Below, piece by piece: positions 1 through 48,800 of a stretch of 64,000 bases of DNA (position 1 is its first letter; each line of letters opens with the position of its first letter). The notes beneath the pieces are model-generated. The model was not told the DNA's origin. It searched no databases and saw only the letters and a program-made list of their open reading frames with translations. This stretch comes from Candidatus Heimdallarchaeum aukensis (GTDB lineage: Archaea; Asgardarchaeota; Heimdallarchaeia; Heimdallarchaeales; Heimdallarchaeaceae): contig CP084166.1 in assembly GCA_021513695.1 (NCBI GenBank), forward strand, positions 2,624,001-2,688,000. The letters are read 5' to 3'. Made by a program: the position numbers and the translations under genes.

Positions 1-619
1 TTTTTATAGTCCTTTTTTTATCTACTGTCCAGGTAACAACTTTCTTGTTTAGTTTTTTGAAGTATTGCATATTTGATTTGTTAAGAAAACGGTAGTATGG
101 ATTTACAGTGTCTATATATTCTCTTTTGATAAACTCTTTCACTTTTTTATTTGGAAATAGAAAAAGAAAAGCGAGAGAAAACCCTAATTTCCTATTTTTT
201 AATTCTTCAATGACCTCAGGATGAAATGAACTGACCATTATTTTAGAATAATCGATATCAATTTCTCGAAGACAATCGTAAAATTGCTCTTTTTTAATTT
301 TACATTTTATTTCTACATTAATACTAATCGAAGGAATAAATTGTTGCAAAACATCCTTGAGTAATGGTATCCTCTCATTGTTAGGCAGTTTAATCTTCTT
401 CAATTCTTCAAATGTAGTTTCTTTTATTAAATAAGAACGGTTATTGTATTTTATCTCTGGATCATGATGGACAATAAAAAACCCATCTTTCGTTAAATGT
501 GTATCTAACTCAATCATATCTGCTTTTTGTTCAACAGCTAACTTAAAAGCTGAAAAGCTATTTTCATACGCTTCTGCTGAAGCACCTCTATGTGCAATGA
601 TAAGTGGTTTATTTGTCAT
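1..619 (-). CDS. Glycerophosphodiester phosphodiesterase (GDPD/UgpQ family). The C-terminus runs off the window edge. Not in the supplied ORF track.
   Basis: Reverse-strand translation from the ATG at 617-619 reads MTNKPLIIAHRGASAEAYENSFSAFKLAVEQKADMIELDTHLTKDGFFIVHHD..., the GDPD catalytic N-terminus (HRG...E.D.H motif). The frame stays open to position 2. Confidence 0.6.
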   Translation of the reverse strand, partial: MTNKPLIIAHRGASAEAYENSFSAFKLAVEQKADMIELDTHLTKDGFFIVHHDPEIKYNNRSYLIKETTFEELKKIKLPNNERIPLLKDVLQQFIPSISINVEIKCKIKKEQFYDCLREIDIDYSKIMVSSFHPEVIEELKNRKLGFSLAFLFLFPNKKVKEFIKREYIDTVNPYYRFLNKSNMQYFKKLNKKVVTWTVDKKRTIK

Positions 620-720
620 CAAGTCTTCTAACTTTTCATTCAATTAAATGCTTTTCCCCTTTTTTTAATTATAAAGAAACACACTTAAAAACGTAAATAA
701 AAATAGTTCTTGAGAAAGAA

Positions 721-1974
721 ATGGCATATAAAATTAAAAATATTGATCTTGCAGAAGAAGGGAGAAGGAAAATCGAATGGGCAGAAAGTAGAATGCCTGT
801 AATGATGAAATTAAGAGAAGAATTTTCTAAAACTAAGCCTTTAGAAGGAATGAGAATAGCAGGTTGTCTTCATGTAACAAAAGAGACCGCTGTCTTAGTT
901 GAAACACTTGTTCTTGCTGGAGCAGAGGTTTCTTGGAGTGGATGTAATCCGCTATCTACTAAAGATGATATAGCAGCAGCTTTAGCTGCAAATGGAACAT
1001 CAATTTTCGCTTGGCATGGAATGACAACGGAAGAATTTTACTGGGCAATAGATAAAACACTTGAATTTAAACCCACACTAACTCTAGATGATGGAGCAGA
1101 TTTAATATTTAGAGTTCATTCTGAGTTCCCACACTTAGCAGAAAACATCATTGGTGGAACTGAAGAGACGACTACAGGAGTCCACCGTCTAAGAGCAATG
1201 GAAAAAGCAAATAAACTGCTGTATCCCATCATTGCTGTTAATGATACACCTACTAAGTGGCAATTTGATAATGTATATGGAACAGGACAATCAACTATTG
1301 ATGGAATATTAAGGGCAACAAATATTCTTATTGCAGGTAAAACTTTAGTTGTGGCGGGTTATGGACATTGTGGAAGAGGAGTTGCAAAAAGGGCAGCTGG
1401 TTTAGGTGCGAATGTAATTGTTACTGAAATAGATCCAGTTGAAGCACTAAAGGCCACATTAGAAGGTTTTAGAGTAATGAAAATGATCGATGCTGCAGAA
1501 ATAGGAGATATTTTTGTAACTGCAACTGGAATGAAAGATGTAATAACAAAGCCCCACTTTGAAAAAATGAAAGATGGTGCAATAATTTGTAATACAGGAC
1601 ATTATGATGTAGAGATAAATATTAATCACTTAGAAGAGTTAGCCGTAGAAAAAAGAGAACTAAGAGCAAATAATGAAGAATATAAGTTGAAAGACGGAAG
1701 AAGATTATATTTACTTGCAAAAGGAAGACTTGTAAATCTTGCCTCTGCAGAAGGACACCCATCAGAAGTTATGGATATGTCTTTTGCTAATCAACTGTTA
1801 AGTTTGATTTATCTTAAAGAAAATGGAGAAAACTTAAAGAAAAAAGTATATGATGTCTCAGAAGAACAAGACAAAAGAGTTGCCAGTTTGAAATTGCAAT
1901 TAATGGGTTATGAGATTGACGAATTGACAGAAGAACAGAAGCAATATAGAGATGCTTTCTTTGAAGGAACATAG
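721..1974 (+). CDS. ahcY: S-adenosyl-L-homocysteine hydrolase (adenosylhomocysteinase)
   Basis: 417 aa. Contains HVTKETAVLVETL, GCNPLSTKDD and the NAD-binding GYGHCGRGVA Rossmann motif typical of SAHH. Confidence 0.9.
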   Translation: MAYKIKNIDLAEEGRRKIEWAESRMPVMMKLREEFSKTKPLEGMRIAGCLHVTKETAVLVETLVLAGAEVSWSGCNPLSTKDDIAAALAANGTSIFAWHGMTTEEFYWAIDKTLEFKPTLTLDDGADLIFRVHSEFPHLAENIIGGTEETTTGVHRLRAMEKANKLLYPIIAVNDTPTKWQFDNVYGTGQSTIDGILRATNILIAGKTLVVAGYGHCGRGVAKRAAGLGANVIVTEIDPVEALKATLEGFRVMKMIDAAEIGDIFVTATGMKDVITKPHFEKMKDGAIICNTGHYDVEININHLEELAVEKRELRANNEEYKLKDGRRLYLLAKGRLVNLASAEGHPSEVMDMSFANQLLSLIYLKENGENLKKKVYDVSEEQDKRVASLKLQLMGYEIDELTEEQKQYRDAFFEGT

Positions 1975-2046
1975 AATCAGAGACAAATCGACGGAAGATT
2001 TTTAGACTAGAAATAAGTATCTCAATATATAGGAAGAGGTATAGAA

Positions 2047-3333
2047 TTGATAAAGCATCTACTTATCCTAACAACATATGGGCAAATATTTTATAGTCAA
2101 GAATTTGGAACAGAAGAAACAGTGGATGTCGCTTTAACAGGAGGGCTAATGTCTGCAATATACTCCATGGCTACAGAAACTCAAAGAGAAAATATCACTG
2201 AATTTGAAATGATGACATCCAGAATCAAATTTAGAGAAGAAGAAAATGATCTATTATTTGTCCTTACTGTTGATAAGCGTATGGATGAAAAAGATGTAGA
2301 AGACTTACTTGATATGATCTCCAAAAGATTTTTTGAAAAATACGGAGAACTTCGAGTAGATGGACTTATTTTGAGTGATTTTGAAGAAGATGTCACTGAA
2401 ATTATAAATAAAAAATTATGGTACCTTGAAACCTCAAAAAGAAAGTTCAGGTTCTTTGATTACTTAGCTTTAATTGCTACTTCAGTAATATTAGGTTGGT
2501 ATATTTACTTATTGTTCAATATTCCCGGTTTTGTATGGTCCCCCTTGTTGAAAAGGTTATCTCAACCTGTAGACTTCGTACTGTATCTCTTAATTTTGAT
2601 GGCTTCTTTTTCTTTACCAGGATTAGCGTTGTATTTTATCTTGAAATATTCACACATTAAGGATATATTCAGGTTCTCAAAGGATTATTTAACAAGACCA
2701 ACAAGAGCAAGCTATGCAGAACTTTTACCAAACTACTTTTTACTAAGTATAGTCATTTCATATGTTATTTACTTTAGTTTTATGATATTCAGCAAGGCCT
2801 ACTTTTCAGAAATTACTGCTTTTCCGATGTACCCTGGAGCATTATTAGGTTCAGATTATGCACAACCTTTCTCCTTTAGTAATATTAGTAACTCTGATAT
2901 AGGTGATCAAGTGTTAGTAGGTTCGTTCACTTGGTTTAGCTGGGTTTTCTTATGTCCCCTTATCTATTCTTTGATTCTTGGAGAAAAAGAAAGGTGGAAA
3001 CTACTCAGAAATAGCATCTTTATTGCATCATTAGCTATAACTGTATTAATTGGCTGTTTAGTTGTAGGAGGAGTAATTTACCTACAAGCGGTTGGTTTTC
3101 ACCCAACAAATCCTGTTCTTTTTGCAGAAGATGTTTCATCTCTATTATATCAATTCGTTGCTCGTTTTCCATTGAACATCTTTTTCTATGGGTTTCTTTT
3201 ATTCCTAGGTGTTGGAATAAATAGAGTTACACCACCAAAGACAAAAGTTTCTTCACTTCTCGCTATTTGGGTATCAATTTACCTTACACTTATCATTCAA
3301 CGCTTATTCTCTGATCTATGGGCTGGAAGCTAG
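2047..3333 (+). CDS. Roadblock/longin-like N-terminal domain fused to a polytopic (~8 TM) membrane domain
   Basis: TTG start. The first ~100 aa (LLILTTYGQIFYSQEF...GGLMSAIYSMATE...LLFVLTVDK...) have a beta-alpha-beta-beta-alpha pattern typical of the Roadblock/LC7/MglB fold. The remainder is hydrophobic helices. Confidence 0.45.
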   Translation: MIKHLLILTTYGQIFYSQEFGTEETVDVALTGGLMSAIYSMATETQRENITEFEMMTSRIKFREEENDLLFVLTVDKRMDEKDVEDLLDMISKRFFEKYGELRVDGLILSDFEEDVTEIINKKLWYLETSKRKFRFFDYLALIATSVILGWYIYLLFNIPGFVWSPLLKRLSQPVDFVLYLLILMASFSLPGLALYFILKYSHIKDIFRFSKDYLTRPTRASYAELLPNYFLLSIVISYVIYFSFMIFSKAYFSEITAFPMYPGALLGSDYAQPFSFSNISNSDIGDQVLVGSFTWFSWVFLCPLIYSLILGEKERWKLLRNSIFIASLAITVLIGCLVVGGVIYLQAVGFHPTNPVLFAEDVSSLLYQFVARFPLNIFFYGFLLFLGVGINRVTPPKTKVSSLLAIWVSIYLTLIIQRLFSDLWAGS

Positions 3334-3399
3334 TCTCTCTCTTTTCTCTTTCTACAAAGAATTTTTAAATTCATAAGATAGAAGGTAGATGAAGTTACA

Positions 3400-4554
3400 A
3401 TGCTCTCATTTAGTGTTCTATTCTTTTTCCATAATAAAAAAAGAACTTACCAAGCAATATTAGTACTCTCTCTTTCCTTAGTAATCTATATTTCAACTAC
3501 TCTTCTGGTGAGAGGTTATTCTTCAAATCTTTCAGGAATGGCTAATATTATTGCTCCATCAGATGAATATATTATAATAGAAAAGGAAAAGTCACTATCT
3601 GAAAGTAGAATTGAAAATCAAACTATTGATTTTCTTCATGATTATGCAGAAAAAACTCCAAATATAAAAGCAATTGTCGCATACAAATATGTACCGATAA
3701 TTATAGAAGGAGAAAATGGTAGAATTAAGGAAACTTATCTTCGTTTATTGAATTTTACTTATTTTAATTCGTATTATCCTCGGGAGTATGTTTATTCGTT
3801 TGAAAATCCAGGTTCTGATGAGCTTATTTTAGGAAGATACTTAGCTTCTTTGTTATCTGCTGATAAAAACTCAGTAGTTGATGTTTATCTTCCAACCATC
3901 AATTTTAACACATCTCTTGTAATTTCTAATATAATAACTAACAGCGATGAATTTGAACTCGAAATAATTGCGAGCTTTAACAGCATTTTGAACTCACACT
4001 TTGATTATTTCTCTTTTGTTGAAATAAAAATTAAAGACCCTTCAACTATTTCTGCTATTCAAGAGGATATTAAAGAAAAGTATCCTGAGCTTGATGTAAT
4101 AAGTGAAAAGCAAACTCAAGAATTTATTATTTATGGCACAAATGATATCATACAAACTCTTACTCTATTACAATCCTTATTTTTCATTTTAATGCTTGTT
4201 TCAATTACGTATAGCATTTATACGTTAGTAAAAGAAAGTGAAAAAGAAATTTTTATTCTCCGTTCTATAGGGGCCACCAATTTAAATATTATTAGCCTTT
4301 TTCTTCTCCAATCATTGTATATAGGAATAATTTCAGCATTCTTGGCTTTAATTGGTGGATTTTTATTTATTGTTTCCATTGTTTCGGCAGTAACAGCTTT
4401 TTCTCATCTTCCTTATATTTCTGTCACAATATATTCAAAGTTAATTGTAATTATTTTTGGTTTTTCAATAGGTTTGTCAATATTATCAGGAATAATACCT
4501 TCTTTCCTTGCGTCAAAAATAAGATTACTTAAGGAGGATGAAATTGTTGTTTAA
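3400..4554 (+). CDS. MacB/FtsX-family permease-like membrane protein (N-terminal TM, extracytoplasmic domain, C-terminal 4-TM FtsX-type domain)
   Basis: C-terminal ILRSIGATNLNIISLFLLQSLYIGIISAFLALIGG... matches the FtsX/MacB permease core (R/K-x-IG-A motif). Overlaps the next gene by 17 nt. Confidence 0.55.
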   Translation: MLSFSVLFFFHNKKRTYQAILVLSLSLVIYISTTLLVRGYSSNLSGMANIIAPSDEYIIIEKEKSLSESRIENQTIDFLHDYAEKTPNIKAIVAYKYVPIIIEGENGRIKETYLRLLNFTYFNSYYPREYVYSFENPGSDELILGRYLASLLSADKNSVVDVYLPTINFNTSLVISNIITNSDEFELEIIASFNSILNSHFDYFSFVEIKIKDPSTISAIQEDIKEKYPELDVISEKQTQEFIIYGTNDIIQTLTLLQSLFFILMLVSITYSIYTLVKESEKEIFILRSIGATNLNIISLFLLQSLYIGIISAFLALIGGFLFIVSIVSAVTAFSHLPYISVTIYSKLIVIIFGFSIGLSILSGIIPSFLASKIRLLKEDEIVV

Positions 4555-7500
4555 CCTTAGACATACTTTCCTATACAATATCTTACCAAAAAAGAGATTA
4601 CTAATAGCTTTTATTGGTTTTTTCATTAGTTCAGTAGTTATATCTGGTGGATCAATATTAATGTATAGTATTGTTTCTTCTACTACAACGTACCTTGGTG
4701 AGAGTGATGATGTCCTTATAATAACGAAAGAAGGTTCTACAACTCCCTATACAAGCCAATTGCCTTTAGACTTTGTTGAAGCAGTGAAATTTGTACCTGG
4801 AGTAGTTGAAGTGTGTCCAGAGGTTTTAACTGCAGCAGTATATAAAAATAAGGCTATTTATTTTAGGGGAGTAGATACATATAGTTTTTGGAATTTTACT
4901 CCTTATACTTTAATTGATGGAGTATTATTAGATGACAAAGATACCTTTAATGTTACGATTGGATTAAATTTTGCAAAAAAGCATAAATTGGAGGTTGGAG
5001 ATTTCATAACTATTTATTCTACAAAAACAACTTCAGCTATTGAATTAAGAGTAAAATCTATTATTTACACGGGCACACTTCTAGATGATGAACTAGTAGC
5101 TCCATTAGCAATTGGACAATTTTTAACTTTTAATTCTTTCAACTATATTACTCATGTAAGAGTAAGAATTGATTTATTAAAAACTACAAAAGAAAAAGTG
5201 AAAAGTATAGTATCGAATAGTTATAAAATTAAAGTTGGAGTACGAACCTTTAATGAAACACAAGAGCTTAATGCTACTGTTTTCGTTCAAGATTTGCGTG
5301 GACAAAAAATTAACACAACTGAAATTGTAAACTCAAATTCTATGATGTTTGAACTCCCATTTAGGATGTATGAAATTTATGCACAGATAGGAAATTTCAA
5401 GTCAAATAAAACACAAATATTACCTGGAATCGACTTAGAGGTTAACCTTCTTATTCCTTATTTAGAAAGAGTTCTGAATTTTACTATTTTAACTGAAGAA
5501 AAAGAACCCATAGAAAACGCAAAAATAAGCTTAACTAGCGAAGATTTTGATGTTTATTCTTATACTGATGAAATAGTATTGTATTCAAATTCTAAAGGAA
5601 AAGCAGTTGTCACTGTCAGTAATGGTACGTATTCTGCTGTTATCTCTTATAAAAGATTCAATAAGAAAATCAGTTTTGCAACTCAGGAAAATAATGAATT
5701 TGAAATAACATTAATAAAGAAACATCCAGACTTACAAGTTAAATTTCCACAAAATAACTCTATAATACATGGTACAACACTTAATCTCTCTTTTGTTAGT
5801 TCTCCTGGTTATTCAATATATTATTACTTTGATGGCGATGGATCCAACACTTATACTTATTATAGTGAGTATACTAATCTACTAGTTCCTGATTTTATTT
5901 TACACAAATTTTCAGGAGAAGCAGGAGAACACACGCTTACGGTTTATACAAAAAATTCTTATTATTCAGGAAACGTGTCAGAATATTTTAATTCAACAAT
6001 TATTTATTTCACTATAATTGACCCACCTGAAACTTTAGAATTTGAAAATGTTTCAGATATGTCTAATTTAGAGCCCAATCAAGTACTGAAAGTAAACTTA
6101 CCATTTAACTATTCATATTATACCCCTTCTTATAGATGGGACGATAAAGAGTGGATAAGTATGAATAATAATCAGATCGTTGCAGAAACAACAATAGGAT
6201 TGCATAAGTTAGAAATTAAACTTAAAACGAATACTAAGCAAAAGAGCTATTTCTATTATTTCTCTATTTCAGAAAACAATTACAATTTTGGATTGTATAA
6301 CTTATCGTATCATAAAAGAATAAAACCAAATTCAATTTTTAAGGTTTGGTTTAATAATCTAACAGAACCACTCTTCTATAGTTGGGATAATCGTAGTTCA
6401 AATAATTTATTTGAACACGAATATATTTTAACAACAGGTTTATCAGAAGGGAGCCATTCATTAACCATTGGATTCCAAAAAGATGGGCTATGGAACAATA
6501 GAAGTTACAATGTAATTATTGACGCTAGTATTCCAAATGTTTCTCTTTCAGTAACAAATAATTCTATTCTAAATTCAGGAGAGTTTTTGAGCGTTTTTTC
6601 AAATGAAACAATTAATAATCTTGCATTTTCATGGGATAATCAAAAATATTCTCTATCTTATGGCAACAAAATCCCAACCCCTTATACAAACGGTACGCAT
6701 ACTCTAAGTTTGATTGGTTATGATTTAGCAGGTAATAAATTTAGTTTATTTTACAATTTCATTATTGTTAATCAAACAACTGTCAATCTATATGACTTCT
6801 TTTTGTCAAACGAATATTCAGGGTTGATCAATCAAACATTTATTGAACTCGAAATTTATTCTCCACCTAGTGTTTCAACTATAACCTATGAATTAGAAGG
6901 AATGCTAAATATTTCAGGAAATTACACAGAAAAACAACTATTTCATCTTTATTCTGGAAAATATAATTTAACAATTAAACTCTTCAACAACTCTCAGATT
7001 ATAGGTTACAGAAATTGGTCTTTTTATGTAATGGATGGATACAACAAATCATTCATTTCTTACTATGATTTACCACAAAATAATGATTTAGAAGATGTTG
7101 TGATCTACTTCCCAGAATTCGATGTTTCATATAAATTAGATGAATCATCAACAATATTTATTACAGATAATATATGGTCTTCAATTATTTTGTCTAACAA
7201 TTCCACTAACAACTTATTTTCATATTTGTTTGTTGATACACAACCACCTAGTGTTTCTATACTTTCACCAGATAAAGGGTCTGATCTTGCAAATATATGG
7301 TTGGATTTAAAAACAGAAGCTGTAGAAGTTTTTTACAAAATTGATTCTTTAACAACATTTACTAAATATTACTCTCCCGTAGTTATATCTAATTTATCAA
7401 TAGGAGAACACAAATTATATTTAACTTTGTATGATAGTTTGAAGAATAAGAAGGAACTTACATATACTTTTTCTATAGGAATCGAATATTCTCTCGTTAA

Positions 7501-8752
7501 TTTAACTTTTGTTTATTCTGAAATAGGAAATATTACTCTAGCCCCAAATTATGAATTTAAAGTTCGTTCTATTTGGAATAAAACTTTAATTTCTCTACAA
7601 TCAAATAACAATGGAACTTCACTATTTAAAATTTTGAAAGGACAATTTTATTTGTACATCACTTATGATAATACAACATTTGTATTTACAATCAATGCAA
7701 TAAGTAATATTAAAAAAACTATATTTCTTGGAAAAACAAATTTGACATTATCGTTTATTGATGTCTATGCGAATCTGCCAATATCACACCAGTACTTCAA
7801 TATTTACGATTATACAGGATTACTAATAAAAAGACTAAAAACAAATAGTACAGGAGAAACAGAAGTGTCTTTGGACACAGGCATTTATTCTGTGGAATAT
7901 GAAGTGCTTGATAATATTTATTCTTTTTATATTTATGTTTTTGAGGGAACGCAATCTTATACTTTTTATGTACCTTCACAGCCTGAAGCAATTAGTTTAA
8001 CTTTTATATTTAGCAATAACACTCAGGCCAAAAACTTGCCAATAATTGTTGAAACTGAGTTTTTTGGAAATATTAGTTTTTATACAGATATTAACGGAGA
8101 ATACATTTTGTTGCTACCTTATCAAAAAATAGTTATACATGTTTTTTCACCTTCAGGAAGAAGATTAATATCTTTAACTAGATATATCGAACCAGGTATT
8201 TCCTCTCTTAAAATCGTTATTCCTAGTGAAAAGAGTTCTACTTATCAAGAATTGCCCTTTCAGAATATAGGTGGATCTTTTGAAATACTTGTAAGTTTAT
8301 CTTCAGAGTATATGGAACATTATCTAAAGGGTTCTCTGCTTTTTACATATACTTTGGCTTATGCTGAAATTATCCTAATTGTATTAATTGTAAGTGCTAA
8401 CTTATACGCTATTTTGAGAAATATAAACACAGAAAGTAGAAAAGAAATAAGAATTGCTGAAATGATAGGTGCTACTCATTCTCATATTATGTTTTCTATT
8501 TTTTCCAGATTGGTTATTTTAACCTCTTTCTCCTATATTATCGGTTATTTTGTGGGGAACGAAATTCTTAAATTGTTAGCTATGAAGAACAAAACCGTAT
8601 TCTTTGGTCATACATTTATCCCAAAAGGTAACTTATATATTTTTGTTATATGTTATTTCTTAATTTTAATAATTGTAAGTGTAACAACATTATTCTTGGT
8701 TGTCTTACATAGAAAAAATGAGAAAAATAGAAAGGAAAAACATAAACTCTAA
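4538..8752 (+). CDS. Giant (1404 aa) FtsX/MacB-family membrane protein with a very large extracellular beta-rich region carrying >40 N-x-S/T sequons. Probable N-glycosylated surface protein.
   Basis: Perfect SD AAGGAGG at 4531-4537. N-terminal TM plus a MacB-periplasmic-like segment. Long middle region with Ig/CarboxypepD_reg-like beta repeats and dozens of NxT/NxS. C-terminal RIAEMIGATHSHIMFSIFSRL... is a 4-TM FtsX motif. Confidence 0.55.
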   Translation: MKLLFNLRHTFLYNILPKKRLLIAFIGFFISSVVISGGSILMYSIVSSTTTYLGESDDVLIITKEGSTTPYTSQLPLDFVEAVKFVPGVVEVCPEVLTAAVYKNKAIYFRGVDTYSFWNFTPYTLIDGVLLDDKDTFNVTIGLNFAKKHKLEVGDFITIYSTKTTSAIELRVKSIIYTGTLLDDELVAPLAIGQFLTFNSFNYITHVRVRIDLLKTTKEKVKSIVSNSYKIKVGVRTFNETQELNATVFVQDLRGQKINTTEIVNSNSMMFELPFRMYEIYAQIGNFKSNKTQILPGIDLEVNLLIPYLERVLNFTILTEEKEPIENAKISLTSEDFDVYSYTDEIVLYSNSKGKAVVTVSNGTYSAVISYKRFNKKISFATQENNEFEITLIKKHPDLQVKFPQNNSIIHGTTLNLSFVSSPGYSIYYYFDGDGSNTYTYYSEYTNLLVPDFILHKFSGEAGEHTLTVYTKNSYYSGNVSEYFNSTIIYFTIIDPPETLEFENVSDMSNLEPNQVLKVNLPFNYSYYTPSYRWDDKEWISMNNNQIVAETTIGLHKLEIKLKTNTKQKSYFYYFSISENNYNFGLYNLSYHKRIKPNSIFKVWFNNLTEPLFYSWDNRSSNNLFEHEYILTTGLSEGSHSLTIGFQKDGLWNNRSYNVIIDASIPNVSLSVTNNSILNSGEFLSVFSNETINNLAFSWDNQKYSLSYGNKIPTPYTNGTHTLSLIGYDLAGNKFSLFYNFIIVNQTTVNLYDFFLSNEYSGLINQTFIELEIYSPPSVSTITYELEGMLNISGNYTEKQLFHLYSGKYNLTIKLFNNSQIIGYRNWSFYVMDGYNKSFISYYDLPQNNDLEDVVIYFPEFDVSYKLDESSTIFITDNIWSSIILSNNSTNNLFSYLFVDTQPPSVSILSPDKGSDLANIWLDLKTEAVEVFYKIDSLTTFTKYYSPVVISNLSIGEHKLYLTLYDSLKNKKELTYTFSIGIEYSLVNLTFVYSEIGNITLAPNYEFKVRSIWNKTLISLQSNNNGTSLFKILKGQFYLYITYDNTTFVFTINAISNIKKTIFLGKTNLTLSFIDVYANLPISHQYFNIYDYTGLLIKRLKTNSTGETEVSLDTGIYSVEYEVLDNIYSFYIYVFEGTQSYTFYVPSQPEAISLTFIFSNNTQAKNLPIIVETEFFGNISFYTDINGEYILLLPYQKIVIHVFSPSGRRLISLTRYIEPGISSLKIVIPSEKSSTYQELPFQNIGGSFEILVSLSSEYMEHYLKGSLLFTYTLAYAEIILIVLIVSANLYAILRNINTESRKEIRIAEMIGATHSHIMFSIFSRLVILTSFSYIIGYFVGNEILKLLAMKNKTVFFGHTFIPKGNLYIFVICYFLILIIVSVTTLFLVVLHRKNEKNRKEKHKL

Positions 8753-17894: not shown

Positions 17895-18770
17895 ATGAGT
17901 GATATACTTAATATTGTCCTTCTTGGCTTGGAAAACGCAGGGAAAACAACTCTTCTAAACACTTTAAAAGGAGAACAATTTAGAGACACAAGTACAACAA
18001 TTGGAATTAATGTAGACCTTATTAATTATAATGGATATAAATTTCAAGCAATTGATGTAGGAGGACAAAGAGTATTTCGAGACACATTATGGCCGCAATA
18101 TACGAAACTTGCTAGTGGAGTAATCTTTATTTTTGATATATTTGATAAAGGAAAGTTAAGCGAAGCAAAAAAATGGTTTGATGAAATCCAGACATGGGTA
18201 ACAAAAAAGGCTGTTTTTCTTTTTTTAGCAAATAAGATAGATCTAAAAGAAGAAAGAAAAGATTTTATGTCACTTGATGATGTAATAAAGAGCTTCAACT
18301 TAGAAAGATTTTCTCTTTATCCTGAGCAAAGTTTCAGAATTTTTGAAGTTTCAGCAAAAACTGGAGAAAATGTGGATGTGGCAATTAAATGGTTGTTTGA
18401 GAAATTGTCAGAGCAAGTTAGAAAACAAACAAATCTTTCTTTCATATTCGTCCATAATAGTGATTTTGAATTAATATATGTTAATTCTGAAAAAGTGAAG
18501 GTTTTAGAAAAACTACTGTTAAAACATGTTTCTCAACTTAGAAAAAATAACATGAAAACTTCATTTCTAAATGTCGATGAGTATAAATTATTTTTTTATG
18601 TTGAACCTCAATTCAGCATTATTTTTGGGGCAAAAAATATATACAAACAGTTCTTCCTAAATGTAGCCTTAGAAATAGCTAATGAGCTTAAAACAAACCA
18701 TCTGCCATTAACTGAATATAAACCAGAACTTGATGGAATAATAAGTAGAATTTTAATAAAGGAAAAATAA
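17895..18770 (+). CDS. Small Ras/Arf-superfamily GTPase fused to a C-terminal roadblock/longin-like domain
   Basis: G1 GLENAGKTTLLN, G3 DVGGQ, G4 ANKIDL and G5 SAKTG fall in the first ~170 aa. The last ~120 aa (FIFVHNSDFELIYVN...KLFFYVEP...FLNVALEIANEL) show a beta-alpha-beta-beta-alpha pattern. Confidence 0.6.
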   Translation: MSDILNIVLLGLENAGKTTLLNTLKGEQFRDTSTTIGINVDLINYNGYKFQAIDVGGQRVFRDTLWPQYTKLASGVIFIFDIFDKGKLSEAKKWFDEIQTWVTKKAVFLFLANKIDLKEERKDFMSLDDVIKSFNLERFSLYPEQSFRIFEVSAKTGENVDVAIKWLFEKLSEQVRKQTNLSFIFVHNSDFELIYVNSEKVKVLEKLLLKHVSQLRKNNMKTSFLNVDEYKLFFYVEPQFSIIFGAKNIYKQFFLNVALEIANELKTNHLPLTEYKPELDGIISRILIKEK

Positions 18771-18844
18771 TTGAGGAACTCCTGTTATCTAAAATTACAT
18801 CTCAATAAATTATAAGTTAAAAAAACATTGAAATCAGTTTAAAC

Positions 18845-20404
18845 TTATTCTGGTAAGCGTATCAAGTCTCGAAAGACCTCTGATTTTTTCTCTAAAACTT
18901 CCTTTTCTCCTTGACCATTAACGAAAATAGAGAATGTTTCTAACATTGGAGAAGAATCTCCACTAATCTTTAGATATATTCTCTGCTCTTCATTTTCTTT
19001 GAGAACATCTAAAATCAAAGTCATTTTTTTGTAGTCGTCTTTGTTTTCTTCAATTATTTGTATGTATTCTGGTTCCTTTCTAGTTATAACGTGCATTAGG
19101 GGTATTTTGTCTTCAATTGAAATTGCTCCTTCTAAATTCTTTGTAGGCTTGAATACGTAAAGAATAGTATATCCTGATTCTGTACTTTTAAGGTAAATGA
19201 ATTTAGCGCTTTTAATGATTGTTTCTCCATTTTCATTCTCAACAACTTTTTTAGCTCTAAATAGATAAGGATAATAGTCAAGTTGGTAGGTTTTAGTTAG
19301 AATCTGTCCCATGTTGACATTCTTATGCTGCCAGCGGACAGTTGTTCCTTTCATTTTTGCTTTTTCAATTGTTCCGGTAGGAGGAATTACATCAGGATTG
19401 CTTCTTTGAATTTCAAATTCAGGAGGAATGTCATCTGTAATATACAATTCATCGATGCTGCGATTATGAATGTTCAAATATTTTGTCTCTGATACAAACT
19501 GTAATCCTTCTGTTTTAATTGTTTCAAATACGTTTAATATGTTAATGACTTTTTTATCCATTACTTCGAGAATTGTTCTATTAATTCTCCTCCTAAAGTA
19601 ATATTTTGCTTGAAATTTTTGTTTTGGGGCAAGTTCTGGTATGTTCCAAATAATTTCCAAAAATTCATCTTTCTTGTTTTTTAATGGATCCACTTCTGCA
19701 CCGTGAATATCAATTTTGTTGATTTTAAAACAATAAGGAATCTGATCAACGATTTTTATATCCTTTATTGGTGCATCATACTCATTTTCTAATTCTGATT
19801 CGATAACAAAATCTCCTATTCCTTCTCCAACAAGTATGCTGTTATCTTTCTCTGTTGTAACTAGTTTTCCGTCGGGTGTTCTAAAACTATTTGTACTTTT
19901 AATCTTTTCAGGATATTGATACTTGTTATCCTCTATTATTTTGAAGATTAGCTCTTTTTTTGCATATTCATCATCAGGAAGTTCGGAAAGAGTGTTTTCT
20001 TTTCCAATCACACGAGTGTCTTCTTCAATTTCCCAATTTTCTTCTTGTTTTCTTGTATCAAGTGGTTTTGTATCTACAATTAAATCTTCAATAGGTTTTT
20101 CTAATATAGTATCAGTTTTTAAAAGTCGAAGAATTAGTCTATAGTCTGCATTTATTCCCAACTCTTGCAAAAATTCTTCTATCCATCGAGCAACTCGAGT
20201 TTCGTGAGGAGCTAGAATTGTAGCCCAAAACTCAAAAACTGTTTTAACCACTTCATGCAGGTTTTTGCATACTCTTTCATTTATTAACCCAGACTTATCA
20301 TGAAAAGAAACAGTTCCACCTAAAGCAGTAGAAAATAAATTTGTGTTTGGTTCAATGTTGATAAAATATCGAGTAGAGCCCCAAAGAAGTTTTCCCGTAG
20401 TCAT
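18845..20404 (-). CDS. Hypothetical protein (519 aa, beta-rich, no recognised motif)
   Basis: Long uninterrupted ORF with a proper ATG. Its start overlaps the stop of the upstream gene (ATGA). Confidence 0.3.
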   Translation of the reverse strand: MTTGKLLWGSTRYFINIEPNTNLFSTALGGTVSFHDKSGLINERVCKNLHEVVKTVFEFWATILAPHETRVARWIEEFLQELGINADYRLILRLLKTDTILEKPIEDLIVDTKPLDTRKQEENWEIEEDTRVIGKENTLSELPDDEYAKKELIFKIIEDNKYQYPEKIKSTNSFRTPDGKLVTTEKDNSILVGEGIGDFVIESELENEYDAPIKDIKIVDQIPYCFKINKIDIHGAEVDPLKNKKDEFLEIIWNIPELAPKQKFQAKYYFRRRINRTILEVMDKKVINILNVFETIKTEGLQFVSETKYLNIHNRSIDELYITDDIPPEFEIQRSNPDVIPPTGTIEKAKMKGTTVRWQHKNVNMGQILTKTYQLDYYPYLFRAKKVVENENGETIIKSAKFIYLKSTESGYTILYVFKPTKNLEGAISIEDKIPLMHVITRKEPEYIQIIEENKDDYKKMTLILDVLKENEEQRIYLKISGDSSPMLETFSIFVNGQGEKEVLEKKSEVFRDLIRLPE

Positions 20405-21012
20405 TGTGTCACCTCTCCTATAACAATGCGTTCATTTATAGAAATAACTTGGTACTCGACAGTTTTCTCTGTTGAAACCTCGATTTCTTCAATTGTGTCA
20501 GAACTATAATTGTAAACACTTAATTTGTAAGTACCTTCTTCTAATGATTCAGTAACATATTTTTTAATTTGAGTAAGAGAATTAAACATAACTGAAGGAG
20601 AACTTAAAACTGGGACATAATCTCCAAAAACATCTCTTTTTAAAATTTCTATTATCTCTCTATTCTCCTTTTTTCCTAATTTTTCTTTATAGAGCCTTTT
20701 TGCAGTATGTAAATGAAAGTTTACTATCTCCTCACTTTCAGCTAAATCATAAATCTCTTTTGCTTTTTCCAATTCATTTAGATACAAGTATCTAGTTATC
20801 AATTTTGCTAAAGCGAAAGCGTATAAGTCTTCATAATCCTCTTTTGAAATATCAGCTAGAAAATTCCACAAAATTGTTGATTCTAAATATTTTTCATTTT
20901 TTTCTAATTCTAAAGATTTTTTTGTTATTGCTTCTAACACTTCATTTATCTTGTCTTGATTGAATAATTCCTTTACTTCTCTAATGATTTCTTGAATAGA
21001 ACCTTCGCTCAT
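20401..21012 (-). CDS. Hypothetical protein (helical N-terminal half, beta-rich C-terminal half), co-translated with the 519-aa ORF
   Basis: The ORF runs to 21021 with a GTG start. The first ATG is at 21010-21012. Confidence 0.3.
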   Translation of the reverse strand: MSEGSIQEIIREVKELFNQDKINEVLEAITKKSLELEKNEKYLESTILWNFLADISKEDYEDLYAFALAKLITRYLYLNELEKAKEIYDLAESEEIVNFHLHTAKRLYKEKLGKKENREIIEILKRDVFGDYVPVLSSPSVMFNSLTQIKKYVTESLEEGTYKLSVYNYSSDTIEEIEVSTEKTVEYQVISINERIVIGEVTQ

Positions 21013-21131
21013 AATAGCCACTCTTTCTTCACCTAAGTTTGTTTAACTAACTATATAATTGTTACTCTCGCCAAATCTTTTCTTATAATTCTATTTGTGA
21101 TTTTTGCTCTTCCTAATTATAAATGTTGAAA

Positions 21132-25851: not shown

Positions 25852-26490
25852 CTAATCATACAACTCTCGTTTAATAGTCTCAAAGATTCCATCTATTCTG
25901 TCGTACATTTCCTCTCCGCCTTTTAAAGCAGAGATAGCTTCCCAACCATGAAATGATTTCGGATAACGTTCTTTTAGATGTTCCCAAGCAGCTTTGAAGT
26001 TTTCTCTCAAGTATTCATCTGCTTTTGCCTTGCTAAAATCGAGTAAGTCAATTTTATTGACTACTAGGAAAAAGATAGCTTTGATTTTTCTTGCCTTGCG
26101 CTCAGCTTTGACAATATCATCATCTAAAGTCATAAGAAAATAATTGCTAACTTGAGTTAAAGCATCAATTTGAACTTTAGTGTCTTGAGTGGGATCAATC
26201 ATAAAGATTATACCATTAGTTTTATAGTCTTGCATTGCTTTTTTCCAATAAGGCCATAAAGACATATCTCCAGGACAGTCTACTGCCATAACTTTGTAAG
26301 TTCTGTATTTTTCTAAGCTCAAAGAAGATTTGTATTGTTGGCTTTTTAGCTTTATACGCTTAGAATGCACTTCAATTTGCGTAGTTGGACTTATATCTTC
26401 TATTTCTTCTCCCTTGATTCTTTTAATTAGAGTAGTTTTACCCACTCCTGTTGCACCTAAAACTGTGATTGATAATTCACGAGTTAACAT
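25852..26490 (-). CDS. Small GTPase (Arf/Rag-like, Ras superfamily)
   Basis: G1 GATGVGKTTLIKR, DCPGD, the LWPYW switch-II region resembling Arf's LWRHY, and NKIDLL (NKxD). Confidence 0.65.
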   Translation of the reverse strand: MLTRELSITVLGATGVGKTTLIKRIKGEEIEDISPTTQIEVHSKRIKLKSQQYKSSLSLEKYRTYKVMAVDCPGDMSLWPYWKKAMQDYKTNGIIFMIDPTQDTKVQIDALTQVSNYFLMTLDDDIVKAERKARKIKAIFFLVVNKIDLLDFSKAKADEYLRENFKAAWEHLKERYPKSFHGWEAISALKGGEEMYDRIDGIFETIKRELYD

Positions 26491-42810: not shown

Positions 42811-45800
42811 TCATTTTGTACTCCTTTTTTTGGTTTCAATTTTTGTATCAGCTGAAATTTCATCTAAAGTTGTTTGTTTTGTTCGCTTTGAAGTTGTTGT
42901 TTTCTTTGTTGTTGTACTTGGTCTCTTTGTTTTAGTAGTCGTTGTTTTCTTTGTTGTTGTACTTGGTCTCTTTGTTTTAGTAGTCGTTGTTTTCTTTGTT
43001 GTTGTACTTGGTCTCTTTGCTTTGGTAGTCGTTGTTTTTACAAAAGGAATTGTCTGTTTGATCTTCTTTATATCATTATAAGTCATCTCTAGCTTTCCTT
43101 CAAGCTGAGATGTCGGATAAGCAATAAATTCTCCAATTGTATTAATTCCAAGTGAGTTCAACTTATTTCGTATTTGCTGTTTAACATCTAATTTTTCTAT
43201 TGGCTCTTCTATTAACTTTAGTAATTTTTGAACATTTTTGTTTTTGAAAATATCTTTTCTCTTCGTACGATTATCAGCAAATATCAACTCTTCAAACGAA
43301 GATATCCCTATTTCTTTTAATTTTGATATAATCTCACTGCTCATAAATGGTGTACTTTTCACTATTTGCGTTTTACCCTTCTTTGCAATTTTTAGAGATT
43401 GAGGAGTTAAAGTTGCAAAATAGTTTCTTAACTGCCTTTCTGTTATATTAGTAATTTCAGTCAGTTCGTTAATTTTTGTATTAAAAACATCCCAGAGAGA
43501 ATACTTCTGTTTATGGTATAATTTAAAGATACTGTTTGGTTTATCCTGCATTAGTGCATAGAATGAGTAAATTGGGTATGAAAGAAGTTCTTTTAATGTG
43601 GATATCTGTCTGATTGATAACTCTGTTTGTTCTTTAATTCTCTTATCAGAAACTGATAAATGTATAATGTGGGAATACCCACCGTTTTCCAATATGGATT
43701 TTTCAGTATCTGAAAATAGACCTAAATCTTTAATCCTATAGCTATTTAGTTCTAATTGCTCTTTCACTTTAGTCATGTTAAGAGAGTTAAGAAGTTCAGT
43801 AAATTCTGCACGTTGTTTTTCTGTAAATTTAATCTGTAAATCATCTATATTTTGTAGGAAGAAAAGATCATAAACTTGTTCATAACCTCTTTTTGCTAGT
43901 TGAAAAAGTATATTCTTTTGACGTATAAATAATGCTAATGATGCTCTAAAACAAGAAAGAACATCTTTTACTTTCATGGATAAGTCGCTGATATTTTTCT
44001 CTTCAAACAAAGCAATTAGTTCACCTAATGAATTTATATCATTTTCATTTAGCTCGTTAATTATTTCTTTATCGTTTACAAAATCTATAAGTTTAGAATT
44101 GCTTTGAGATGCTAATGAATCTAGATCATGGAACGGAATTTGAGATAAAAGGTTTTTAAGGACAGTTATGTTTGAAGATTTATTTAATAATAGTAAATCA
44201 TAAACTGTTTTTGTATTACTTTTTAGTAGAAGCCTAAATGTTTCCTTACTCTCAAAGACAAGTGGAAGAGAGTAAATTTTTTGTTCAATTCTTAAACGGA
44301 GTTTTTCCGTGATCTTCCATCTCTTTGAAGTTTTTGATTTTGATACAATATTAAACACGTAAGCCTCTTCTATAGAGAAAATGTGACCTTGACTTAAAAC
44401 ATCTAATTCAGTTTTATCCAAAATTGTTTCAGGAATGGGGGTTAACTTAGATGCTAGAGTACGTAATGTTTCTAGTGATAGATTTCGAATCTGACGTATT
44501 AGTCTATTATCGTCGATTATCTGACTTAACTGGTATCTAGGTTTTAAAATTAAATCTCCTATTGTTAAGTTGCCATATTGTTTGAATTTCTCTTTATTTT
44601 CAAAACTTTCATTGACTAGCAAAATAACATGCCTATTTAGAAATTGTAAGTATTCATTAAAGTGTAAAGTTATGGTCTCTGGGAAAGAACTTGTAATTTT
44701 GTCAAATTGCTTTTTATCATATTTCTCCAAGAGAAGTAAGGATTCAAGGGTATATTGGACTTTTAGTTCATCTTTTTCAGGAAGATTCAACTTTTCTTCG
44801 AATTTGGTTGGTTTTGAGAAAATAAATGAGTAAATATCAAGTAGTCTCTTGGATACTTGAGAATTTACTTTTAGAGAATCATGATGTATATTGAAGAAAA
44901 CTAATTGTTGAAAACTTAAGTCTGGGAGTTTTTCGTCAAAATATCGCGAAGAGAGTTTTTGTAAAAGTCCAATTTTTGTTCTTAATGAAGGTGAAAGGTT
45001 AGAAACAACATCAGTGTTTTCAAAGAGATCAAGATAATTCTTAATACCATTTTCTCTCAATTCAGCAATATCAAAATCTTGTAGAACAATGTTTGTTTTT
45101 AGAGCAGGGGGGTTGCTTATTCTAGAAATAGTAATCTTACTAAGAAAAGTGTCAACTTCACTAATGTTTGTGCTTATAATTTTTGCAAGAGCTGGCTTAG
45201 ATAACAAAAGCATTTCTTGTAGAGTACTTACTTTGGATAAAAGTTTTAACCAATTTTCGAGAGGAAGTTGTGGGAAAGAAATCAGATAAATAGATTTGTT
45301 TAATATCTTTTGAACATTATTTCGTAATTTACTTCTCAATTTACAGTGTTTTTTTGATAAATCATAAACCAAATCGTCAATAACTGTATAATATTTCAGT
45401 AATTTTTTCTTTGTTTCACTATCAAACAGCATAATATTGGAAAGTTGAACTCTTTTATCTCTCAATTTTTTAATTGTTTTAACATTCAAAGTTGAGAGAA
45501 CATGATTAACTTTCTCAAGTTGTTTTTCTGATAAGAATGAAGAATATGAAATAGGTTTAATTAGTAAATCCTTTAGTGTTTCGATTTTATGTTCATTCAG
45601 TTTTTCTACTTCTTTTTCAGTGAAATCTGTTATTATAGAGACAGAACTGTTAAGGAGGTTTAGAATCTCTAATCCTGTTTTAGTAAGAAACTCTTTGTTC
45701 ATGTATAAAACAGAAATAAAATCAATGATATTTGAGATCTCTGGAATTTCAATGTTTTTGCTGAATAAGTTTTTTGAATTAATAGTACCAAGAAAATCTT

Positions 45801-48800
45801 TTGTCTTTAACGTAAGAGATAATGTTTTCTTTTTATCTTTAATCAGATTACTAATTATGGTGTTATAATCACCAAAGCTGACTAGTTGATCGTTTTTAAC
45901 AAGATCTCTGATGGTGAAAAGATTGTTGTCAAAGTATTTTGTTTCAATCTCTTCAAATTTTAAGGAGTTAATAGAGCTTAAGAATAGGATTGATGTATCT
46001 AAAATTTGTTTTATTTTTGTTCTTATTTTTTCTATCTTTTTAATATCATAAAGCCAGTTGTATATTGAATTCTCTTCTAAATCTGAAAAACTATAGAATC
46101 CATAAGATAACAAAGTAGATTTTTCTTTTTCACTAAGAAATGGTAAATCTACAAAATGATTTGGCTTATCTTTTTCAATTGTTTTCTTGATTTTATCAAT
46201 CTTTATTGATGAGCGTAGTTTCAATATTTGATCAAGTTTAATCCTTGATTCTTTTGCGACTGTTTTATACGGAATAAGCAGTAGATCTGCGATAGTGTAT
46301 GTTCCACCTTTTTTAAGGTTAGTTTCTATTTTCTCTTCTAGTCCTAAATATCGAATATTGGCTAGTAAATATGGGCTAATTTCTGCAAATATGCTCTTAT
46401 CTTTTAGATTAACATCTCCAAGTAATTCTTGATAAGATAAGTACCCAAGTTTCATTGCTTTTTCTTCATATGAACCTAAAGGAGGAATAAAACTTTCAAG
46501 ATGTAGATTTTTTAACATTGATAGACTTGATAAAATTTCATCAACCATTGCATCATCTAGATTTTGGATAGAGGAAATAACATCTATAATGTAAACTAAC
46601 TTCTTGTTATAACAAGATTTTATTGTATCTAATGTCAATATAGGTAGATTGTTTATGTTTCTACTTAATTTCATTCTAATATCTTTAATTTCTTCAATGT
46701 ATGAATCTGGTAGGCTTAAGAAAAACTCTTCAGGGAAGTAATATAGATATTCAATTGAGAAAACTCCCAAACTGTATAGCTTTTGAACTAATGACTTATT
46801 TAACTTTAAGTTTGCAATATCAAGAGTAGAGAATTGAAGGGAAGATAGATTCCTAATGAAAAGAGAATTGTTCTCTTTTATGGCTTTATCCAATTTTGGG
46901 AGAAGGGTTTCCCACAGGTGAATAGGAATATGAAGGTAGTCATAATATGTTTTTTTATTTTTTAAAGATTCATTAATATTTTTTGTTGAAATCCCGAGTA
47001 TACGCTCAATTGTCTTTATTGGTGTAAAGAGAATAGGTATATTCACTATCAACTTTTCTTTTTCATCTTTGTTTATTTCTAATTGATCTACATCATGATA
47101 AAATAGTTGAATTAAAGAGTAAATCTCATTTTCATTAAGATATTCGATTGTAGAAACCTCGGGTTTTTTGATTGTTTTTGGACTAGTACCTTCTTTAGCT
47201 TCACGTTTTTTAATAAGTGGAAGTTTACCCTCTTTTGTTAGTTCTTTTTCAGTTAAGGATGGTAAAAGGTTTAAGTCGATTCCATAGAGTTTAAGTTCAG
47301 AAACAATATTTCTTTTACTAATCTGTAATTTAATAGTGTTTATCTCTTTATACTCTATTTCAAATAATTTACCCAAAGAAACTGATGGAATAGATAAAAA
47401 TTCAAGTATAGTGTTAATCTTATTTTCAAAGAGAATAGAGTTTTGTTGCAATGAAAGTGAACTTAAGAAGGAAATTGGAGTTGTTCCAAACAATGAGAGA
47501 GTCTTTTTTATTGATGATAAATTCTTATCTTCTGAACTGTAATCCTGTAAACAAAGAAGTTGATCTAAATACTCAATATTAATCTTTTTTAGATATAGCT
47601 TCTGTTGTTTGGACAAAAATTTTACATCACGTAACTTAATTGCCCATTTAGGTATTTGAAAATCAGATAAAGAACTTACTACATATTCTGCTAGTTCTAT
47701 GTCAATATTGTCTGGAGGAAGAAGTAATAAATCAAGAATAAGTTTTTTATCTTCCTTCATCAAATTTCTCAAAAACTCAAGCTGATCTATTTGAGAAAAT
47801 TTATCTAACCAAATAATTGGATATTTTACCATACTTGTAAGAGAATTAGAATTACTAAAGAGAATTTGAGAACTTATGACAAATGGTTGAGGAAGCAGAT
47901 CTAGTAGATTAATAACATCGGGAGAGGTCTTAATGTCTAGTTTATCACTTTTATTTGATAGAATGTCCAGATGATCTTTGGGAATTAAGTTAACTAATTT
48001 TTCTTTAGAAAATTCTTTTACAAAACGGATAATCTCACTTCTAGCATTTGATGGAATAGTTCTCTTTTCTTCAGAGCTAAGAGTAAGAAGTTCAATAATA
48101 TTTTTAACTCCATTTTTCCATAAATCAAGTTTGACGTCTAAACTCATGTCTGAGATAGAAAAAATATTTAGACATAAACCATAGATTAGTTCTTCAAGTT
48201 TAGCAATACTACTCGCTTTTTCTATTTTTTCACTTTCTGAGAATATAAGCAAGTATTCTGGTACCAACCCAAAGATATCTTCAAATGATGCTTTTGAAAG
48301 GTTGAATTTAAAGTCTGTGAGTGTACTTATTAATTCTTTATCTTCTTCAAGAATAGGTATGCCTGAACTAAGGCTTATGTTTCCCTTTCTTTTATCTTTT
48401 AACTCTTCAGGAATGGAATTGAATATCTTCTTAAGATCTTTTTCTCTAACTATAAAGAGGTCAATAACTCGTAGAATGCGGTTTTTTGCAAGACTACGTT
48501 TAATAAAGCGTGAAAGGTTTGAAATTCTGAAGACTGAAGAGTTACAAAGAGAGAGAAAATTATCAATATTTTCCTTAAATTCTTCAGAAAATGATTTTAT
48601 TTGATAACAAAGACCATAAAGATCTTGAACTGTGTCCTTATTCAGTTTTTGTAAGCTAAGAAGATTTCTCTTTGACAATAACGCAAGAGATTCAAGTTTT
48701 ATTCCTTTTTCTTCAACTTCATTTAGTATTTTTTTAACTGAAATATTTTCTTTTATTTTGATAATTTCAGTTTCAGGTATGTCTAAAATTAATGATATCG

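Follow-up and report, generated by a model that had tools for sequence, protein, structure and literature searches.

A two-domain GTPase of Candidatus Heimdallarchaeum aukensis that joins an Arf-type G domain to a longin-topology domain, and its paired orthologues in sister lineages

In this work we describe a GTPase-longin gene of Candidatus Heimdallarchaeum aukensis, situated at 17895..18770 on the forward strand of the stretch of 64,000 nucleotides (nt) of contig CP084166.1 that was analysed (hereafter, the window). Its product of 291 amino acids (aa) carries an intact Arf-family G domain, directly followed by a domain that is predicted to have the longin topology. With moderate confidence, we propose that the protein is a two-domain switch whose longin domain would provide a platform for dimerisation or docking within a Rag-like dimeric GTPase. 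We infer the dimer from the Rag-like layout of the protein, from the operon pairing of its orthologues in sister lineages, and from published AlphaFold2 dimer models.

The gene and its G domain

The open reading frame (ORF) starts with ATG and encodes 291 aa followed by a stop codon, and the annotated "GTP-binding protein" of Ca. H. aukensis is 100% identical to its product. In the public records the gene is labelled just as "GTP-binding protein" or "ADP-ribosylation factor-like", and the search of the whole protein against NCBIfam returned the generic small_GTP model and nothing else. An orthologue with 87% identity is present in H. endolithica, and approximately 90 clusters of homologues of two-domain length were recovered. 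The comparison of the two Heimdallarchaeum orthologues by the Nei-Gojobori method (synonymous divergence, dS, of ~0.7) gave an overall ratio of nonsynonymous to synonymous divergence (dN/dS) of 0.082, with values of 0.052 for residues 1-171 (G domain) and of 0.119 for residues 172-291 (C-terminal domain). Purifying selection acts on the G domain and on the longin domain alike, and a chance ORF is ruled out by the homologues and by the dN/dS values. A scan of the region for sigma-70 promoters and terminators was uninformative, since the host is an archaeon.

The original prediction had proposed a small Arf/Ras-like GTPase at this place, with the G1-G5 motifs within the first ~170 aa, and this was confirmed in the limits of the ORF, in the five motifs and in the match to the Arf family of Pfam (PF00025). 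The latter covers residues 6-170 with 115.1 bits (cut-off, 22.3 bits; E 3.2e-33) and positions 16-173 of the 174 in the profile; weaker matches were obtained with Ras (67 bits), Roc (54 bits) and SRPRB (32 bits). Together with the matches in the PDB and the secondary structure assigned by DSSP to the model described below, this delimits the G domain to residues 1-171 (17895..18407, forward strand, as all the features of the gene). The conservation of each motif was counted in an alignment of 56 homologues. The G1 motif or P-loop, GLENAGKT, is found at residues 11-18 (17925..17948), with G11, A15, G16 and K17 invariant; the switch I threonine of G2, T35 (17997..17999), is invariant in 56 of 56; the G3 motif in switch II, DVGGQ, spans residues 54-58 (18054..18068), with D54, G56 and G57 invariant and Gln58 as the catalytic residue. 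This last position is occupied by Gln in 40 homologues and by His in 16. The G4 motif, NKID, corresponds to residues 113-116 (18231..18242), where N113, K114 and D116 are invariant (56/56), and the G5 motif, SAK, to residues 153-155 (18351..18359), where S153 is invariant and A and K are the majority residues. A complete set of G1-G5 motifs, with a P-loop of Arf type and a DVGGQ switch II, places the domain in the Arf family by its motifs.

Among the solved structures, the G domain is matched best, both in sequence and in structure, by the Asgard ArfR proteins HodArfR1 and GerdArfR1 (PDB 8oul, 8ouk, 8oun and 8oum). These matches reached E 2e-22 with the single sequence and E 2e-42 to 1e-39 with the profile, and the Foldseek comparison gave 31% identity and a template modelling (TM) score of 0.86-0.90 relative to the target; the eukaryotic Arl1, Arl2 and Arf1 rank just after them. 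Switch II (DVGGQRVFRDTLW) closely resembles that of HodArfR1 (DIGGQQVFRDSLW), to which it is equal in length, and exceeds by one residue that of human Arf1. BLASTP gave 74 bits and 31% identity against human Arf1, and 25 bits and 20% identity against human RagA. The G domain is an intact Arf-family GTPase with canonical nucleotide-binding motifs, and its nearest relatives of known structure are the Asgard ArfR proteins.

In the AlphaFold2 model, DSSP places the start of strand beta1 at residue 5, with only 4 residues before it, and therefore there is no N-terminal amphipathic helix. The N-terminus is MSDIL, without Gly2, and the 291-aa translation contains no cysteine, so that there is no Cys to be lipidated. 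With neither the helix nor a lipidatable Cys, the protein by itself is therefore not a membrane-inserting switch of the Arf style. In this respect it differs from the crystallised ArfRs (10.1101/2024.02.28.582541), which share with it the best G-domain match and, in HodArfR1, the length of switch II, but are single-domain proteins of ~180 aa with a membrane-binding N-terminal amphipathic helix; here there is a 120-aa longin domain instead and no such helix. The accession of the GTPase-longin protein is absent from the supplement of that study, although the genome of H. endolithica is listed there.

The C-terminal domain

The long helix of residues 160-179 (18372..18431) is alpha5 of the G domain and, according to DSSP, runs unbroken as a connector into the C-terminal domain. 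The AlphaFold2 model of the full-length protein, built on the 56-sequence alignment, has a predicted local distance difference test (pLDDT) of 87.8 and a predicted TM score (pTM) of 0.85. Because the G domain dominates the full-length Foldseek comparison, so that the C-terminal domain is unclassifiable that way, the latter was also modelled by itself, with a pLDDT of 91.4. A C-terminal region that was disordered or of unrelated fold, the outcome against which the original prediction could be checked, is not what these confident models present. The predicted longin-fold domain extends over residues 181-290 (18435..18764), with strands at residues 181-188, 193-196, 222-227, 230-236 and 240-246 and helices at residues 199-217, 251-268 and 272-290. 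The resulting order, b-b-a-b-b-b-a-a (b, strand; a, helix), takes the place of the beta-alpha-beta-beta-alpha pattern that had been read from the sequence. Merely a short extension of alpha5 of the G domain stands ahead of the C-terminal beta1, and two helices come after beta5, which is the longin topology, with two C-terminal helices and without an N-terminal one; the nearest structural neighbours of the domain are solved longin domains. The models thus put the domain in the longin/roadblock superfold, with the longin order rather than the a-b-b-a-b-b-b(-a) of roadblock domains.

The claim of a C-terminal domain of roadblock/longin type holds at the level of the superfold, given the confident model and the structural matches, and does not extend to the profiles: neither Roadblock/LC7 (PF03259) nor the longin families of Pfam matched at E<=10, with the whole protein or with residues 171-291. 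A profile of the C-terminal domain (28 sequences) found dynein roadblock, the C-terminal domain of RagA and TRAPPC2 among the PDB sequences, with sub-significant E values of 0.2-0.75, which are suggestive of the superfold and should not be taken as evidence. In Foldseek, the best E values for the domain were those of MglB, LAMTOR and dynein LC7, yet MglB superposes poorly (TM 0.48; root-mean-square deviation, rmsd, 9.6 A).

Eukaryotic Arf-family GTPases that bind a longin-type domain through the GTP-state switch region, as SR-beta does with the SRX domain of SR-alpha, suggest a reading of the protein as a fused SR-beta/SR-alpha(SRX) counterpart, with the longin domain as a built-in effector or anchor. 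We consider this hardly credible. The longin domains of SNAREs, adaptor sigma subunits and TRAPP outscore SRX in the structure comparison of the C-terminal domain, the G domain scores 32 bits with SRPRB versus 115 bits with Arf, there is no transmembrane anchor, and no gene related to the signal recognition particle (SRP) lies near the GTPase-longin gene, where coat or adaptor genes are likewise not found. In SR-beta/SRX, as in the association of Arf1 with sigma, mu-N, zeta-COP and delta-COP, the partners are separate chains of larger eukaryotic complexes, whereas here both domains belong to one chain.

Another alternative, already contained in the original prediction, is that of a self-regulated switch, in which the longin domain would act on the switch regions of the G domain to which it is fused, as a built-in GTPase-activating protein (GAP), guanine nucleotide exchange factor (GEF) or autoinhibitor, after the models of MglB on MglA and of the longin GAPs FLCN, NPRL2 and SMCR8 on Rag and Arf. 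Small GTPases recurrently have longin or roadblock domains as their GAP/GEF platforms (PMC10933270, PMC12290439), the best Foldseek E values of the longin domain go to MglB, which is a GAP, and the pTM of 0.85 of the monomer suggests that the two domains hold a defined relative orientation. Nevertheless, we regard this alternative as unlikely. None of the C-terminal columns of the alignment reaches 70% Arg/Lys, and column 255 is the only one with at least 50% Arg (54% of the 56 homologues), being Leu in our protein. The beta1-beta2 loop is HNSDFE and lacks the GP motif that GAP longins carry in the loop ahead of beta2 (PMC12290439). The mean majority fraction is 0.38 in the longin domain versus 0.61 in the G domain, so that the longin domain is far less conserved than the invariant switch regions that it would have to touch. 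Moreover, MglB and the longin GAPs work in trans and in dimeric form, and not as one domain fused to the GTPase. With no conserved Arg finger and no GP motif, a GAP longin of the FLCN, NPRL2 or SMCR8 type is ruled out. From the earlier proposal, the fusion of a GTPase to a longin domain stands, and the signatures of a GAP acting in cis were not seen in the longin domains of the 56 homologues.

Two-domain architecture and distribution of the family

In the full-length comparison, Foldseek alignments that covered both domains (286-318 columns) were obtained solely with proteins of Rag/Gtr type, namely LokiRagO (8yl2), Gtr1/2 and RagA/C. The identity in these alignments is 12-17% and the rmsd ~13 A; therefore, the domain order is common with Rag/Gtr proteins and the interdomain geometry is not. 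The likeness to RagA-D and Gtr1/Gtr2, which the original prediction had overlooked, comprises the length of ~300 aa and the succession of the domains, with the G domain at the N-terminus and one of the longin/roadblock superfold at the C-terminus. The protein could be taken for a true Rag/Gtr orthologue, from the RagGtr clade of archaea, whose C-terminal roadblock domain has diverged. To the length, the domain order and the full-length alignments may be added that matches to Gtr1_RagA (PF04670) are precomputed for some more distant relatives, and that the C-terminal domain of RagA was matched in sequence at the sub-significant E of 0.25. However, PF04670 was not matched by our protein in the whole-protein Pfam search at E<=10, and its G4 and G5 motifs are NKID and SAK versus HKxD and TSI in Rag proteins; the alignment of these motifs in Rag and in the "GR" proteins of MKD1 is given in the supplement of PMC10933270. 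Since profile, motifs and predicted C-terminal topology all depart from those of Rag/Gtr, the protein is not a member of that group, and we give this alternative very little probability. The G domain here is of Arf type, the predicted C-terminal topology is longin rather than roadblock, the interdomain geometry differs as noted, and no Ragulator/EGO context was seen here.

An exhaustive search of 1.84 billion representative proteins with the hidden Markov model (HMM) of the C-terminal domain yielded 15 matches in all, each of them either a protein of 300-327 aa with the match at its C-terminus or a short fragment; therefore, the longin module is known by sequence only in the order G domain then longin. 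The homologues come from Heimdall-, Hod-, Thor-, Hermod- and Promethearchaeota, and the few bacterial matches are short single-domain GTPases.

A branch from Hod-, Thor- and Promethearchaeota (P0063-P0089; L004, L034, L036-L049) consists of proteins of 315-319 aa with a DLGGH switch II, a PTGIP beta1-beta2 loop and a 10-residue insertion ahead of the last helix. His at the position of the switch II Gln is also the state of Sar1 and SR-beta. In addition, a 3.4-kb contig binned as "Candidatus Woesearchaeota" (L009, CAYTAB010000041.1) carries an orthologue near-identical to that of H. endolithica (dS 0.07), which suggests misbinning more than a transfer.

Paired orthologues in sister lineages

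All the fetched loci were surveyed for pairs with an ORF finder and phmmer. At 10 loci of sister Heimdallarchaeota, from different assemblies, the gene of an orthologue of the window protein is succeeded, at -8 to +13 nt, by that of a paralogue with 313-325 aa (L001, L007, L011, L016, L017, L018, L019, L021, L023 and L029); in L001, for example, the gene of Gln type (Q-type) occupies 6001-6918 and that of His type (H-type) 6922-7881. The paired orthologues have 300-319 aa, are 42-48% identical to the window protein, and present DxGGQ and NKID or NKVD. Their partners have an Arf-type G domain (101 bits with Pfam Arf for the family) and then a C-terminal domain; they carry NKWD, and DMGGH, where His replaces the catalytic Gln. 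The C-terminal domain of the partner aligns with that of the window protein co-linearly, yet weakly (hhalign E 4e-4, probability 34%), and, in contrast to the latter, has invariant polar residues (D185, H196, R204, E230 and E231; "AHIHDNS..R"). In the contexts examined, the genes beside the pairs encode PAS, GAF, HisKA or response-regulator domains. The translational coupling of a Gln-type and a His-type gene in the sister lineages suggests a dimeric switch.

Two further loci should be mentioned. L085 is also listed among the loci with a translationally coupled pair. In L086 (JAHLWR010000012.1, ~80-7558), from a Heimdallarchaeota metagenome-assembled genome, at least six Arf-like GTPase genes are found in ~8 kb; their products have 184-318 aa, several of them of two-domain length, and they are grouped round a PAS-domain gene.

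Proposed mechanism

In the two-domain switch that we propose, the Arf-type G domain would be the GTP switch, connected by the helix to a longin domain that may act as a constitutive dimerisation or docking platform, by analogy with the C-terminal roadblock domain of Rag/Gtr proteins and with the usual role of longin and roadblock domains. The active unit would be a dimeric GTPase whose nucleotide state could be read by partner proteins, and in the sister lineages the partner would be the operon-encoded His-type paralogue. Published AlphaFold2 models of the GTPase-roadblock (RB) and GTPase-longin proteins of MKD1 join as dimers through their RB or longin domains (PMC10933270). As the partner is missing at the Heimdallarchaeum locus and is not among the homologues, the protein would therefore form a homodimer or pair with an unlinked paralogue. 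In H. endolithica, such a paralogue of 312 aa (L035, 3959-4897) extends C-terminally beyond its Arf-type G domain.

Several observations weigh against this proposal. The gene is solitary in the window, with no second copy within the 64 kb, and 0 of the 29 clusters of the partner family are attributed to Heimdallarchaeum; therefore, the operon argument is borrowed from sister lineages that are ~44% identical. Moreover, the pTM of the monomer also fits a fixed intramolecular contact between the G and longin domains, as in a cis-regulatory role, and the interdomain geometry in the full-length alignments is unlike that of the solved Rag proteins.

At the level of the whole family, a further reading is that it retains, in fused and ancestral-like form, what eukaryotes have as partnerships of Arf-family GTPases with longin domains (SR-beta with the SRX of SR-alpha, and Arf/Sar with the longin subunits of coats and adaptors), or else that the Rag heterodimer was reinvented here independently on an Arf basis. 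We judge it improbable, in either form. Under it the pair could be ancestral, and the window copy an orphan that remained after the loss of the His-type partner.

Comparison with known systems

Fusions of GTPases to longin or roadblock domains have been reported in Asgard archaea since 2016, and the window protein is another of that sort. Five longin domains fused to Arf-like GTPases are attributed to Lokiarchaeum (Klinger et al. 2016, as cited in PMC4917890, Dey et al. 2016). For MKD1, the published arrangements LG, LGR, GXLX, GR and RG unite longin and/or roadblock domains with "Rag-like" GTPases that carry an Arf annotation, and an operon pair among them is predicted to heterodimerise (Tran et al. 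2024, PMC10933270). Asgard Arfs with extra domains at their N-termini, for example longin, have also been described (Zhu et al. 2025, PMC11914678). The window protein shares with these fusions, of which LokiRagO (PDB 8yl2) is a solved example, the phylum, the covalent union of a small GTPase with the longin/roadblock superfold, and the "Arf-like" character by sequence. As for the Rag/Gtr proteins, the non-identical paralogue pairs of the sister lineages recall the obligate heterodimers RagA/C and Gtr1/2.

In MglA/MglB the roadblock/longin superfold likewise provides the partner of a small GTPase, but there MglB is a separate roadblock protein and a dimeric GAP. The G domain here is of Arf and not of MglA type. 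Bacterial conservon-type modules combine a histidine kinase, a roadblock protein and a small GTPase. The pairs of the sister lineages resemble them in adjoining PAS, HisKA and response-regulator genes, while no two-component gene adjoins the GTPase-longin gene in the window.

The Heimdallarchaeum locus

In the window, the gene of the class I lysyl-tRNA synthetase (lysS) lies 52 nt upstream of the GTPase-longin gene, on the same strand, and a convergent ORF of 519 aa begins 75 nt past its stop codon. This ORF and one of 206 aa, which overlap by 4 nt, occupy 18845-21021 on the reverse strand; neither has a Pfam match, and the NCBIfam search gave a far-sub-threshold hrcA for the 206-aa ORF. The pair is kept beside the GTPase-longin gene in H. 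endolithica (L006) and in L087. The locus of H. endolithica has lysS upstream and a 519-aa/205-aa pair downstream, with an ORF of 614 aa in between (L006, 6911-8755). This extra ORF is placed 32 nt 3' of the GTPase gene, near an rve-family transposase gene, and has no match in Pfam or NCBIfam; at its counterpart site the window presents only the 74-nt spacer of 18771-18844.

The neighbourhood of a distant solitary orthologue (P0018, 46% identical) has the same gene set as the window, that is, a small GTPase of ~212 aa, a CxxCxxCC protein, a Sir2 protein, a protein of ~366 aa, lysS, a geranylgeranyl-reductase-like flavoprotein and the pair of ORFs, of 518 and 203 aa in the P0018 locus.

The original prediction had pointed to two more GTPase or roadblock-type genes in the window. 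One of them, at 25852-26490 on the reverse strand, indeed encodes a stand-alone Arf-like small GTPase of 212 aa (Pfam Arf, E 1.6e-10; TIGR00231, 42.7 bits with a cut-off of 42.5). A counterpart of 214 aa is found in the syntenic L087 locus, and therefore the linkage of this GTPase (~7 kb) to the GTPase-longin gene is conserved. For the other, a 428-aa ORF at 2047-3333 on the forward strand, the search gave nothing beyond a sub-threshold hit to Fuz_longin_1 over residues 3-99 (E 3.8e-4; 21.1 bits, cut-off 26.1), and neither NCBIfam nor the PDB sequences were matched; its product might contain several longin domains. A giant ORF of 4184 aa is also present in the window, at 42811-55365 on the reverse strand.

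Conclusions

Small GTPases and their longin/roadblock platforms form the core logic of membrane identity and nutrient signalling in eukaryotes, and the Heimdallarchaeia are among the nearest archaeal relatives of eukaryotes. In the literature that we compared, we found no description of an ArfR-like G domain (NKID/SAK) directly followed by a longin-topology domain, of the conserved Gln-type/His-type operon pair in Heimdallarchaeaceae, or of the orphan state of the Gln-type gene in Heimdallarchaeum. Current views stay intact, and nothing in them is overturned by the GTPase-longin gene or by the pairs. The gene offers a well-defined case, in Heimdallarchaeum, of an Arf-type switch in the Rag layout, with a longin domain replacing the roadblock one. 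The finding of the pairs may outweigh the gene itself in usefulness, as the paired loci of the sister lineages, set against the solitary Heimdallarchaeum copy, provide a simple comparative system in which to ask if dimeric GTPases of the Rag kind had more than one origin.
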